64,000 nt of DNA, taken from the NCBI RefSeq assembly GCF_054482595.1, contig NZ_CM137008.1; one strand, 5' to 3'. The notes under the pieces were generated by a model. It was not told the DNA's origin, did no database searches, and saw nothing but the letters and a program-made list of their open reading frames with translations. The translations under genes were made by a program, and so were the position numbers. Numbering within the stretch: the first letter of the stretch is position 1; each line of letters opens with the position of its first letter. Positions 2,979-15,388 of this stretch are shown here, in pieces.

Positions 2979-4136
2979 ATGGAGCGCAACGTCACGCTCG
3001 ATTTTGTTCGCGGCGTCGCCATTCTGGGGATCCTGCTATTAAACATCAGCGCCTTTGGGCTACCAAAGGCGGCTTATCTCAATCCCGCCTGGTACGGTGC
3101 TATTACGCCGCAGGATGCATGGACCTGGGCATTTCTCGATCTCATCGGCCAGGTGAAATTCCTCACGCTTTTTGCGCTGCTGTTTGGTGCTGGCCTGCAA
3201 ATGTTGCTGCCCCGTGGCAGACGCTGGATCCAGTCGCGGTTAACGCTGTTAGTCTTGTTGGGCTTTATTCACGGTTTATTGTTCTGGGACGGCGATATTC
3301 TGCTGGCTTACGGGCTGGTGGGCTTAATCTGCTGGCGGCTGGTGCGCGATGCGCCATCGGTAAAAAGCCTGTTTAATACAGGCGTCATGCTTTATCTGGT
3401 GGGGCTTGGCGTTTTGCTGTTATTGGGGTTGATTTCCGACAGCCAGACCAGCCGCGCCTGGACGCCGGATGCATCGGCTATTTTGTATGAAAAATACTGG
3501 AAGCTTCACGGCGGCGTTGAAGCGATCAGTAATCGTGCCGATGGTGTTGGCAACAGTTTACTGGCACTGGGCGCACAGTATGGCTGGCAACTGGCAGGGA
3601 TGATGCTCATTGGTGCGGCGCTGATGCGCAGCGGCTGGCTGAAAGGGCAATTCAGCTTACGTCACTATCGTCGTACTGGTTTTGTGCTGGTGGCGATTGG
3701 GGTGACCATTAACCTTCCTGCCATCGCCCTGCAATGGCAGCTGGACTGGGCGTATCGCTGGTGTGCCTTCTTACTTCAAATGCCGCGGGAACTGAGTGCG
3801 CCGTTTCAGGCGATTGGCTATGCGTCGCTGTTTTATGGCTTCTGGCCGCAATTGAGCCGCTTTAAGCTGGTGCTTGCGATCGCCTGCGTCGGACGGATGG
3901 CGCTGACCAACTATCTATTGCAAACGCTGATTTGTACCACGCTTTTTTACCACCTCGGTTTGTTTATGCAGTTTGACCGTCTGGGATTGCTGGCGTTTGT
4001 TATTCCGGTATGGCTGGCGAATATCCTCTTCTCTGTTATCTGGCTGCGTTACTTCCGCCAGGGGCCGGTGGAATGGCTCTGGCGTCAGTTAACTTTGCGT
4101 GCTGCCGGACCGGCAATATCTAAAACATCAAGATAA
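2979..4136 (+). CDS. yeiB: DUF418-family inner-membrane protein
   Basis: 385-aa polytopic membrane ORF 17 nt downstream of folE; recognised as YeiB. Confidence 0.85.
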   Translation: MERNVTLDFVRGVAILGILLLNISAFGLPKAAYLNPAWYGAITPQDAWTWAFLDLIGQVKFLTLFALLFGAGLQMLLPRGRRWIQSRLTLLVLLGFIHGLLFWDGDILLAYGLVGLICWRLVRDAPSVKSLFNTGVMLYLVGLGVLLLLGLISDSQTSRAWTPDASAILYEKYWKLHGGVEAISNRADGVGNSLLALGAQYGWQLAGMMLIGAALMRSGWLKGQFSLRHYRRTGFVLVAIGVTINLPAIALQWQLDWAYRWCAFLLQMPRELSAPFQAIGYASLFYGFWPQLSRFKLVLAIACVGRMALTNYLLQTLICTTLFYHLGLFMQFDRLGLLAFVIPVWLANILFSVIWLRYFRQGPVEWLWRQLTLRAAGPAISKTSR

Positions 4137-4165
4137 CGATCTGGATCACATTCGTTAACAAAACG

Positions 4166-4183
4166 GCTGTAACCGTTTCCATT
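4166..4183 (+). promoter_or_regulatory. Candidate GalR/GalS operator upstream of galS (gctgtaaccgtttccat)
   Basis: Resembles gal operator half-sites (GTGTAAnCG…); galS is recalled to be autoregulated. Match is partial. Confidence 0.4.
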
Positions 4184-4185
4184 GC

Positions 4186-4201
4186 TGTGACTCGATTCAC
4201 G
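4186..4201 (+). promoter_or_regulatory. CRP-binding site candidate (TGTGA-ctcgat-TCACg) in galS promoter
   Basis: 9/10 match to TGTGA-N6-TCACA consensus read directly; about 80 nt upstream of galS ATG. Confidence 0.5.
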
Positions 4202-4277
4202 AAGTCCTGTATTCAGTGCTGACAAAATAGCCGCCAGCAAGCAGTCATTTACTGCAATCTCATAACAGGTAGTGAAT

Positions 4278-5318
4278 ATGATCACCATTCGTGATGTAGC
4301 GCGTCAGGCTGGCGTCTCTGTGGCAACGGTTTCCCGGGTGCTCAATAACAGCACGCTGGTCAGTGCCGACACGCGTGAAGCAGTAATGAAAGCCGTGAGT
4401 GAGCTGGATTATCGGCCAAACGCCAATGCCCAGGCGCTGGCAACTCAGGTTAGCGACACCATTGGCGTGGTGGTGATGGACGTTTCTGATGCGTTTTTCG
4501 GCGCGCTGGTAAAAGCGGTGGATCTGGTCGCCCAGCAGCATCAGAAATACGTGCTAATCGGCAATAGCTATCATGAAGCGGAAAAAGAACGTCACGCCAT
4601 TGAGGTGTTAATTCGCCAGCGTTGTAATGCATTGATTGTTCACTCAAAAGCATTGAGTGACGATGAACTGGCGCAATTTATGGATAACATTCCCGGTATG
4701 GTGTTAATCAACCGCGTTGTGCCGGGGTACGCCCATCGTTGCGTTTGCCTGGATAATCTCAGCGGTGCCCGAATGGCGACGCGCATGTTGCTGAATAACG
4801 GTCATCAACGTATTGGTTATCTTTCTTCCAGCCACGGCATTGAAGATGACGCCATGCGTAAAGCAGGCTGGATGAGTGCGTTGAAAGAGCAGGATATTAT
4901 TCCGCCGGAAAGCTGGATTGGCACTGGTACGCCGGACATGCCGGGCGGTGAGGCGGCGATGGTTGAACTGCTGGGGCGCAATCTACAACTTACCGCTGTA
5001 TTTGCTTATAACGACAATATGGCTGCTGGCGCACTGACAGCATTAAAAGATAATGGTATTGCGATTCCGTTACATCTCTCAATCATCGGTTTCGATGATA
5101 TTCCCATCGCCCGTTACACCGACCCGCAATTAACGACCGTGCGTTATCCCATTGCTTCAATGGCTAAATTAGCCACCGAACTGGCCTTGCAGGGGGCAGC
5201 AGGCAATATTGATCCTCGTGCCAGCCACTGTTTTATGCCGACGTTAGTGCGTCGTCATTCTGTCGCAACGCGCCAGAATGCGGCGGCGATCACTAACTCA
5301 ACAAATCAGGCGATGTAA
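4278..5318 (+). CDS. galS: Galactose isorepressor GalS (LacI/GalR family)
   Basis: Track ORF starts at GTG 4272; ATG at 4278 gives the 346-aa [14 protein letters not shown]… HTH protein recognised as GalS. Confidence 0.9.
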
Positions 5319-5330
5319 CCGCTTTCAATC

Positions 5331-5346
5331 TGTGAGTGATTTCACA
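5331..5346 (+). promoter_or_regulatory. Perfect CRP consensus site (TGTGA-gtgatt-TCACA) in galS-mglB intergenic region
   Basis: Exact consensus palindrome read directly; mgl is a known CRP-activated operon, but the site lies ~250 nt upstream of mglB ATG so promoter assignment is uncertain. Confidence 0.45.
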
Positions 5347-5597
5347 GTATCTTAACAATGTGATAGCTATGATTGCACCGTTTTAACGTTGTAACCCGTA
5401 TGTAACAGTGAATAATCACTTTCACCGAGGTAATAGCGTCATAACAACAATTAAAGCCGTTTTCTGGAGCGTTACCGGGCATGGAAGAACGAATTTTAAA
5501 AAGTGAGCTTCGGCGTTCAGTAACACTTCATTAACTCTACTGCCCCGCCGAGCATTTATCTCAAGCACTACCCTGCATAAGAAAAACCGGAGATACC

Positions 5598-6596
5598 ATG
5601 AATAAGAAGGTGTTAACCCTGTCTGCTGTGATGGCCAGCATGTTATTCGGTGCCGCTGCACACGCTGCTGATACTCGCATTGGTGTAACAATCTATAAGT
5701 ACGACGATAACTTTATGTCTGTGGTGCGCAAGGCTATTGAGCAGGATGCGAAAGCCGCGCCAGATGTTCAGCTGCTGATGAATGATTCTCAGAATGACCA
5801 GTCCAAGCAGAACGATCAGATCGACGTATTGCTGGCGAAAGGGGTGAAGGCACTGGCAATCAACCTGGTTGACCCGGCAGCTGCGGGTACGGTGATTGAG
5901 AAAGCGCGTGGGCAAAACGTGCCGGTGGTTTTCTTTAACAAAGAACCGTCTCGTAAGGCGCTGGATAGCTACGACAAAGCCTACTACGTTGGCACTGACT
6001 CCAAAGAGTCCGGCATTATTCAGGGCGATTTGATTGCTAAACACTGGGCGGCGAATCAGGGTTGGGATCTGAACAAAGACGGTCAGATTCAGTTCGTACT
6101 GCTGAAAGGTGAACCGGGCCATCCGGATGCAGAAGCACGTACCACTTACGTGATTAAAGAATTGAACGATAAAGGCATCAAAACTGAACAGTTACAGTTA
6201 GATACCGCAATGTGGGACACCGCTCAGGCGAAAGATAAGATGGACGCCTGGCTGTCTGGCCCGAACGCCAACAAAATCGAAGTGGTTATCGCCAACAACG
6301 ATGCGATGGCAATGGGCGCGGTAGAAGCACTGAAAGCACACAACAAGTCCAGCATTCCGGTGTTTGGCGTCGATGCGCTGCCAGAAGCGCTGGCGCTGGT
6401 GAAATCCGGTGCACTGGCGGGCACCGTACTGAACGATGCTAACAACCAGGCGAAAGCGACCTTTGATCTGGCGAAAAACCTGGCCGATGGCAAAGGTGCG
6501 GCTGATGGCACCAACTGGAAAATCGACAACAAAGTGGTCCGCGTACCTTATGTTGGCGTAGATAAAGACAACCTGGCTGAATTCAGCAAGAAATAA
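5598..6596 (+). CDS. mglB: Periplasmic D-galactose/D-glucose-binding protein
   Basis: 332-aa ORF with signal peptide (…[12 protein letters not shown]); recognised as MglB. Confidence 0.95.
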
Positions 6597-11741: not shown

Positions 11742-11934
11742 GTGATCTTCCTTAATGCTATGAGTAATTAAGGCGAACGCTAAATAAATATTGCGTGCTG
11801 ATATTAAGGCTATGCGCGTGGGGAAATTTAAACTGTGAAAGGATTCACAAATAGCTGCGGTTCAGAATGTTATATCCGCAGCTTATTGAGTGAAGTAATA
11901 ATTATTCTCAATAATTAACAGAAAAGAGAAAATA

Positions 11935-13930
<1,996 letters not shown>

Positions 13931-14059
13931 GGCGTTGCCTCATAATCATGTAATGGGATAACAGTTTACGAACCCGTTATGGCTTTATATGTGATCTGAA
14001 TCTCATTAATTATGCAACGCGTGAAACTTACATCAAAAATGCGCGACGCATCGCAAATT

Positions 14060-15186
<1,127 letters not shown>

Positions 15187-15388
15187 TTAATTCGTAAAAC
15201 GTGCTACCGATCACATTAAGAAATCAGCGCTTATTTTTTCGCTCCCCGGTATTACGCAATGAGCAGCGAACTCAGGCATACATCAAGCATAGAGAGGGAT
15301 TGCAGTTTGCAGCAATCCCTCTTTGCAGACCTTTAATCCGCTGACCATAGGCGCTAACATAGCGCCTCATTTTTTTGCGGGTGATGAT

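Follow-up and report, generated by a model that had tools for sequence, protein, structure and literature searches.

Among described systems, the closest to the locus studied here are the E. coli K-12 promoters mglBp and galSp as recorded in RegulonDB and EcoCyc, which occupy the same loci and coincide with it in sequences, regulators and spacing (-41.5/-59.5 for the CRP site and operator of mglBp, -42.5/-61.5/+92 for those of galSp). Relative to K-12, the strain that provided the window, i.e. the whole stretch of 64,000 nucleotides that was analysed, carries a few SNPs in the mglB leader, for instance CACTTTCACC (window) against CACTTTTGCC near 5417-5426. Promoter P1 of galETKM, where the operator OE is centred at -60.5 and CRP at -41.5, likewise carries this module, with identical spacing and regulators. 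However, gal additionally possesses an overlapping P2 promoter plus an internal operator used for DNA looping by GalR and HU, whereas mglBp has a single annotated operator and galSp has its downstream operator at +92.

The lacI-lacZYA region provides a further parallel, as a gene for a LacI-family repressor immediately precedes its target operon in the same orientation, and an operator overlapping the end of this gene is followed by a CRP site (PMC3711431). At lac, however, CRP binds at -61.5 (class I), the main operator is located downstream of the transcription start site (TSS) and roadblocking at O3 needs looping between O1 and O3, whereas at mglBp CRP is centred at -41.5 and the sole operator lies upstream. 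Finally, should the candidate second CRP sites near -93.5 (see below) be real, the layout CRP(-93.5)-LacI-family repressor-CRP(-41.5) would resemble that of the CytR-type tandem-CRP promoters cddP and deoP2. GalS and GalR bind strong operators on their own, while DNA binding by CytR requires that it contacts CRP. A difference to cddP and deoP2 is that the second CRP sites of galSp and mglBp are weak candidates in E. coli, scoring 6.6 and 3.3 bits, respectively. The cdd gene is located in the same window and has matrix matches centred at 13997.5 and 14047.5, that is 50 bp apart.

Two operator-CRP modules in the galS-mglB region

The window derives from the E. coli chromosome and includes the yeiB-galS-mglBAC region. 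Among 5,426 complete E. coli genomes, 5,425 matched bases 3900-5700, which span yeiB, galS and mglB, with 95-100% identity. One annotated genome shows 100% identity to this 1,801-base query, and its genes are arranged in the order cirA, yeiG, folE, yeiB, galS, mglB, mglA, mglC. The mglB gene starts at 5598 and the TAA stop codon of galS occupies 5316-5318; all further coordinates are compiled in Table 1.

Table 1. Coordinates of genes, promoter elements, leader features and candidate sites in the window
Feature	Sequence	Position	Strand	Basis
Candidate second galSp CRP-like site	GATAACGATCTGGATCACATTC	4132-4153, centre 4142.5, ~-93.5	+	hypothesis; conservation, matrix offset
galS external operator for GalR/GalS	CTGTAACCGTTTCCAT	4167-4182, centre 4174.5 = -61.5	+	motif match, 80/80 loci, annotation, ChIP-chip
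galSp CRP site	core 4186-4201, TGTGACTCGATTCACG	4183-4204, centre 4193.5 = -42.5	+	motif, conservation, annotation, mutational footprint, SELEX
galSp extended -10	TGACAAAAT	4220-4228	+	read from sequence
galSp TSS		4236	+	published TSS 42 nt before ATG; agrees with annotated site positions
galS coding sequence (Gal isorepressor)		4278-5318	+	annotation
galS internal operator OI	GTGGCAACGGTTTCCC	4320-4335, ~+92	+	inside helix-turn-helix codons; annotated +91.5/+92.5
Candidate second mglBp CRP-like site (E. coli)	GAATGCGGCGGCGATCACTAAC	5276-5297, centre 5286.5 = -93.5	+	hypothesis; inside galS 3' end
mgl operator for GalS/GalR	ATGTAACCGCTTTCAA	5313-5328, centre 5320.5 = -59.5	+	overlaps galS stop; motif, annotation, ChIP-chip, constitutive mutation
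mglBp CRP site	core 5331-5346, TGTGAGTGATTTCACA	5328-5349, centre 5338.5 = -41.5 (class II)	+	motif, annotation, footprint, SELEX
mglBp -10 hexamer	TATGAT	5368-5373 (-12 to -7)	+	conserved
mglBp TSS		5380	+	TSS-seq, K-12 2,238,588
mglB 5' leader, 218 nt		5380-5597	+	TSS-seq
Spot 42 seed-pairing site	UACCCUGC	5569-5576	+	pairing register inferred
Shine-Dalgarno	GGAG	5589-5592	+	sequence

An earlier note on this DNA had reported a near-consensus CRP site upstream of galS next to a gal-operator-like sequence (delimited as 4166-4183), and a perfect CRP palindrome behind galS. All three elements are indeed present. When compared with TGTGA-N6-TCACA, the core of the galS site has one mismatch and the palindrome, which precedes the mglB start codon by 252-267 bp, has none; the 16-bp operator within the delimited segment deviates from GTGTAANCGNTTACAC at three positions. 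While the positions given for these sites are exact, their description as a pair flanking galS does not hold, as they are parts of two distinct promoters that were already known. Moreover, two elements were absent from the earlier note, namely the internal operator of galS and the mgl operator at the galS stop codon. The CRP palindrome is consequently not isolated but represents one half of a second operator-CRP module, and with this second operator the sites read as two copies of one operator-then-CRP module.

Raw motif counts were discarded as evidence as they equal chance expectation. The window contains four matches to the CRP core as compared to 1.92 expected, and at least four were obtained in 13 out of 100 shuffles. 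Likewise, two operator matches were found in the 64-kb window versus 2.02 expected, and these two are the galS external operator and the mgl operator. The case is carried by adjacency, conservation and the literature. Operator-CRP pairs with the operator upstream and the centres 18-19 bp apart occur twice, whereas dinucleotide-preserving shuffles yielded 0.053 such pairs on average; any operator-CRP pair was present in 16 out of 300 shuffles. From a Poisson estimate we infer a probability of about 0.001 for at least two such pairs arising by chance. That is, the operator-CRP arrangement exceeds chance, whereas the motif counts do not. All four CRP core matches (at 4186, 5331, 11834 and 13990) reside in promoter regions, which are those of galS, mglB, preT and cdd, respectively. 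A scan of 63,979 positions with a CRP weight matrix, which is approximate and derives from 17 classical sites, ranked the mglB site third and the galS site 18th.

Conservation was assessed in 80 species-level genomes from about 25 genera of Enterobacteriaceae, which were fetched with MglB as query. A perfect TGTGA-N6-TCACA is present 237-268 bp upstream of mglB in all of them, including one locus with an insertion in the leader, and ATGTAACCGNTTTCAA invariably begins exactly 18 bp ahead of this CRP site (80/80). Upstream of galS, TGTGA-N6-TCACG is found in 80/80 loci (TCTCA instead in locus L058) and here the operator begins exactly 19 bp ahead of the CRP site, again in 80/80. As is to be expected of real CRP sites, the half-sites are invariant in the alignment of the 80 genomes, with free variation in the N6 spacers. 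Beyond this sample, both modules were detected in Rahnella, Hafnia, Pantoea, Erwinia, Morganella and a Serratia-like locus. Yersinia lacks galS, and the mgl module is still there. The operators also agree with the genetics of the gal operator, a 16-bp dyad of the form GTGNAANCGNTTNCAC with genetically critical positions 3, 5, 9 and 15: G3, A5, G9 and A15 are all present in the mgl operator and in the galS external operator, and also in OI when read on the opposite strand (GGGAAACCGTTGCCAC).

Mapping and regulation of galSp and mglBp

The annotated promoters mglBp and galSp are reportedly to be credited to Hogg et al. 1991 and Weickert & Adhya 1993. Genome-wide TSS-seq places the mglB start at K-12 position 2,238,588, generating a 5'UTR of 218 nt. 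The upstream sequence listed in this data set, CTGTGAGTGATTTCACAGTATCTTAACAATGTGATAGCTATGATTGCACCG, is identical to window positions 5330-5380, which assigns the TSS to 5380 and thereby the centres of the CRP site and the operator to -41.5 and -59.5, respectively. These values match exactly the RegulonDB positions of CRP and GalR/GalS at mglBp as quoted in the Reg-Seq supplement. Thus, the palindrome belongs to a long-leader mgl promoter, which was one of the two possibilities raised in the earlier note. The only TSS-seq 5' ends in this interval are 5380 and 5458, both in gene-sense orientation, leaving no mglB start close to the ATG, and the targets retrieved by genomic SELEX with CRP include both galS and mglB. 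The 5' end at 5458 is covered by slightly more reads than that at 5380, and part of the mglB mRNA may be initiated or processed at this downstream position.

Functional data point in the same direction. Reg-Seq recovered the CRP site of mglBp as an activator site, whose mutation lowers reporter expression, and cAMP was reported to induce mglB in a cyaA mutant. In ChIP-chip experiments GalR produced peaks at all three operators, and the listed sites are the reverse complements of the operators in the window: ATGGAAACGGTTACA corresponds to the galS external operator and GTGGCAACGGTTTCC, with K-12 coordinates 2241611-2241626, maps onto OI. Evidence for the function of the mgl module also comes from evolution experiments. 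In glucose-limited chemostats, a G-to-T exchange 3 bp after galS sweeps repeatedly, which was designated a mgl operator mutation and de-represses mgl. This exchange affects the central G of the operator dyad, at window position 5321. Another adaptive mutation from chemostat selection, at K-12 position 2,238,630, maps to 5338 and thus falls within the CRP site of mglBp.

For galSp, the Reg-Seq supplement cites RegulonDB as placing CRP at -42.5, GalR/GalS at -61.5 and the downstream operator at +91.5/+92.5. The former two equal the values calculated in the window from the TSS and the site centres (Table 1). [quoted passage not shown] Footprints of the GalR/GalS operators were recovered by Reg-Seq at neither galSp nor mglBp. 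At the extended -10 element of galSp, the motif CTGnCAnAATA is conserved in the alignment of galS-upstream loci.

Taken together, the locus almost certainly comprises two independent gal-regulon promoters of E. coli, each with a GalR/GalS operator near -60 that is followed by a CRP site near -42. Site positions, mapped TSSs, occupancy, mutational footprints and adaptive mutations in the operator and in the CRP site all document this organization. A CRP site centred at -41.5 or -42.5, overlapping the -35 region, corresponds to the class II position in the nomenclature of Busby and Ebright. Both promoters combine a consensus match centred near -41.5 of the mapped TSS with a weak -35 element; the respective hexamers are CAGTAT and GTCCTG, both poor matches. 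At both promoters CRP near -42 takes the place of the -35 element. The poor native -35 hexamers fit the report that galSp and mglBp are silent in vitro in the absence of regulators. In the Reg-Seq supplement this CRP position is labelled class I.

The regulation can be summarized as follows. When glucose is scarce, cAMP-CRP recruits RNA polymerase to both promoters. In the absence of galactose, the operator is occupied by GalS (mainly) or GalR and activation is blocked, whereas galactose leads to release of the repressor. As the operator abuts the CRP site, its occupation would cover the DNA that the alpha C-terminal domain of RNA polymerase uses upstream of CRP. In case of mglBp, the 16-bp operator and the 22-bp CRP site even have one base pair in common; partial overlap of the repressor and activator sites at mglB has been noted in the literature, where GalS was also reported to preclude formation of the open complex. 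The repressor presumably excludes either CRP or the alpha C-terminal domain, and this is how we would picture the exact steric mechanism. At galSp, activation by cAMP-CRP at -42.5 is counteracted by auto- and cross-repression through the operator at -61.5, with the second operator at ~+92. mglBp, directly behind galS, drives expression of mglBAC through the 218-nt leader, at the 3' end of which an Hfq/Spot 42 target is located. It has been reported that CRP activates galS and mglBAC and that GalS represses mglBAC. Because CRP activates galS too, these interactions form an incoherent feed-forward loop.

The mglB leader and alternative roles of the galS-mglB junction

The length of the mglB leader is conserved, ranging from 188 to 219 nt in the 80 genomes; a published description gives about 250 bp for E. 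coli and Yersinia (PMC3119520). An Hfq/Spot 42 target in the mglB 5'UTR has been validated in Salmonella. In the leader alignment, both CTACCCTGC and CUACCCUGC, the latter at 5568-5576, are invariant. Judged from complementarity, CUACCCUGC would pair with the 5' end of Spot 42 in the register given in Table 1. The leader does not appear to represent a known RNA family or a globally structured RNA: Rfam covariance models gave no match to it at E<=1, its folding stability is unremarkable (z-score -0.35) and RNAalifold yielded no consensus structure across the leader alignment. At the local level, a stem formed by 5507-5515 with 5546-5553 shows 76% pairing as compared to 26-48% in slid controls. 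The leader block 5400-5425 was considered as an internal gal operator and rejected, as the match is limited to a TGTAAC half-site.

The position of the mgl module right at the end of galS raises the question whether its sites could serve additional or other roles. By analogy with lac, the mgl operator on the galS stop codon could, in addition to its role at the promoter, act as an O3-like roadblock that would give rise to non-stop galS mRNA and to feedback on GalS. At the lac junction LacI bound to O3 blocked transcription in vitro and CRP did not, which suggests that it is the operator rather than CRP that could stop polymerases coming from galSp. The geometry is that of lacI and O3, i.e. a repressor gene directly upstream on the same strand, no terminator and an operator over the last codons, and both the LacI roadblock at O3 and SsrA tagging of the truncated product are documented (PMC3711431). 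However, the block at lac O3 needs looping between O1 and O3 (PMC3711431), so a single operator without looping may block weakly, and no paper connecting galS with roadblocking or SsrA tagging was found in the searched literature. We regard this additional role as unlikely.

The second possibility raised in the earlier note was that the CRP palindrome itself acts as a terminator-proximal roadblock, that is as a protein barrier or as part of a termination signal instead of a promoter element. As the palindrome lies 13 bp past the galS stop codon and the galS-mglB interval lacks an intrinsic terminator, galS transcripts must indeed cross it. However, at the equivalent lacI-lacZ junction cAMP-CRP failed to block transcription in vitro (PMC3711431), and there is no terminator nearby to which the palindrome could be proximal: a terminator scan of 5318-5598 on the galS strand found no G+C-rich hairpin with a U-tract behind it, and the sole terminator-like match in the vicinity, on the minus strand, is the operator dyad itself. 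In addition, the centre of the palindrome is at a distance of exactly 41.5 bp from the mapped TSS downstream of it, the -10 element in between is conserved, and in the reporter footprints expression drops when this site is mutated. A role of the CRP palindrome as roadblock or termination signal is thus highly improbable and this suggestion was abandoned. Still more remote is the idea that an antisense promoter reading into galS is driven by the CRP site at 5331-5346, be it in addition to or in place of mglBp: the symmetry of CRP sites and the divergent activation known from single sites at other loci count in its favour, but a promoter scan revealed no promoter-like -10 or -35 element at the required distance on the minus strand, no TATAAT-like hexamer exists on this strand around 5300-5312, and the two 5' ends mapped in the interval are both on the plus strand.

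Candidate second CRP-like sites near -93.5

The two operator-CRP modules that make up galSp and mglBp are already known in detail: the flagged sites have RegulonDB entries, were footprinted, are bound in genome-wide assays and represent classic targets of selection under glucose limitation. Their value here is that of a positive control, as real regulatory sites were pinpointed with single-base accuracy by reading nothing but the sequence. The new element is confined to the hypothesis of a second CRP site at each promoter.

At galSp, a block of about 32 bp (4131-4163) is nearly invariant. It overlaps the yeiB stop codon, and the neighbouring C-terminal codons of yeiB vary. The block contains GATCACATT, a perfect right half of a CRP site; in the candidate site the N6 spacer differs among genera, whereas G32, A33 and TCACA are constant. 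The best matrix offset is exactly -51 from the primary site in 80/80 loci. The score in E. coli is 6.6 bits, which corresponds to chance level, as 54 positions in the window reach it versus about 50 in shuffles. Given that the matrix is approximate and that the galSp score occurs at chance frequency, the matrix alone cannot establish sites at -93.5. By-eye comparison of the block with the consensus sequences for IHF, DnaA boxes, Fur-like sites and FlhDC suggested that none of these fits. Reg-Seq (2025-26) detected an activator footprint at ~-95 of galSp, which was strongest in stationary phase, acetate and galactose, conditions of high cAMP, and to which no factor was assigned.

At mglBp, the candidate site lies inside the galS reading frame. 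Conservation of third codon positions has a mean of 0.648 in galS, and the nine most conserved stretches of 7 codons, the best of which reaches 0.915, are all located within 5271-5315. Around this segment second codon positions vary and adjacent first and third positions are invariant, which is not the pattern of a constraint at the protein level. The conserved letters of the candidate site read TG(T/C)G-N7-TCACT. In 80/80 mgl loci the best matrix score within 20 bp is found at -52 or -51, the median being 8.6 bits and the value for E. coli 3.3 bits, i.e. chance level. Scores of 12-14 bits are reached at -52 in Rahnella, Hafnia and Pantoea, which represent three other families. Yersinia, Morganella and the Serratia-like locus lack the candidate second site or have it at a shifted position, and the same holds for galSp in Rahnella and Hafnia. 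No extra footprint was reported by Reg-Seq at mglBp, and no paper linking a site at -93.5 with these genes was found in the searched literature outside subscription journals.

Based on these conservation patterns, we tentatively propose that galSp and mglBp may both be tandem-CRP promoters (class III or CytR-type), in which the operator would be sandwiched between two CRP dimers. If this reading is true, the factor behind the Reg-Seq activator footprint at ~-95 of galSp would be CRP, and the candidate sites provide a specific identity for this footprint that can be tested cheaply. The promoters of the transport and isorepressor genes of the gal regulon would then share a common three-site architecture, which would persist even where it has to be accommodated within the reading frame of galS.

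Conserved elements flanking the galS and mglB promoters

The synonymous sites of galS are most strongly conserved at its 3' end (Table). A CRP-like sequence can be read there, TG(T/C)G-N7-TCACT, whose centre lies 52 bp 5' of the CRP site of the mglBAC promoter, mglBp. E. coli has a weak version of it (TGCGG), and strong ones, scoring 12–14 bits with our approximate CRP matrix, occur in Rahnella, Hafnia and Pantoea. At the galS promoter, galSp, the DNA 5' of the operator includes a nearly invariant 32-bp block that overlaps the stop codon of yeiB. Within this block, the right half of a CRP-like site is perfect and lies 51 bp 5' of the primary CRP site (~-93.5); a conserved TTAAC and an A-tract come after it. 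The position of the block coincides with a published activator footprint of galSp at ~-95, for which the source names no factor.

Table. Coordinates of the features in the window (bit scores from the approximate CRP matrix)
Feature	Window position	Details
Block 5' of galS operator	4131-4163	
galS 3' end	5271-5312	
mglB leader block	5400-5425	ATGTAACAGTGAATAATCACTTTCAC; +21 to +46
Second mglB 5' end	5458	K-12 2,238,510
Candidate leader stem	5507-5515 with 5546-5553	GC-UCGGCG : CGCCGA-GC
Putative GalR operator in mglB	6399-6414	GTGAAATCCGGTGCAC; K-12 2239532-2239547
CRP-like site upstream of preT (yeiT)	11831-11852	perfect core TGTGAAAGGATTCACA; 18.5 bits
CRP-like pair upstream of cdd	13987-14058	centres 13997.5 and 14047.5
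CRP-like site between yohJ and dusC	15197-15218	AAACGTGCTACCGATCACATTA; 16.7 bits

The mglB leader and coding sequence

At the conserved block in the mglB leader, most genera show the perfect palindrome GTGATTAATCAC. The block also holds a start codon paired with a stop codon (ATG-TAA) and half of an operator site, TGTAAC. Further downstream, published TSS-seq data place a second mglB 5' end (UTR of 140 nt), whose read count is slightly above that of the main start. This second end is preceded by no convincing -10 hexamer, and therefore it may represent a processing site. In the candidate leader stem, 76% of cells are paired across 44 sequences, compared to 26–48% in slid controls, and some of its G-C pairs are exchanged for A-U. 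The stem is followed by the U-rich AUUUAUCU; it does not amount to a canonical terminator. Within the mglB coding sequence, one stretch of the window corresponds to a site that a 3C study gives as a putative GalR operator.

Variant loci in relatives

In Citrobacter amalonaticus S646 (L024, 2589-3012), the mglB leader is longer than in every other genome by an insertion of ~194 bp, which extends the distance from the TSS to ATG+12 to 424 nt as compared to ~230 nt elsewhere. The module of GalR/GalS operator and adjoining CRP site is intact. In Escherichia albertii (L004) and another C. amalonaticus locus (L009), tblastn matches to galS are only partial (residues 73-346 and 100-227, respectively), suggesting a possibly disrupted gene. 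Both loci nevertheless retain the promoter modules of galS and mgl.

Other CRP-like sites in the window

The top match to the approximate matrix in the window lies 93–108 bp upstream of preT (yeiT), and a CRP SELEX paper includes yeiT among known CRP targets. Another strong site is present in the divergent yohJ-dusC intergenic region. Upstream of cdd, two CRP-like sites are spaced 50 bp apart, the distal one with the half-sites TGCGC/TCGCA. This pair is the classical tandem-CRP cdd promoter, which provides a useful comparator inside the same window.
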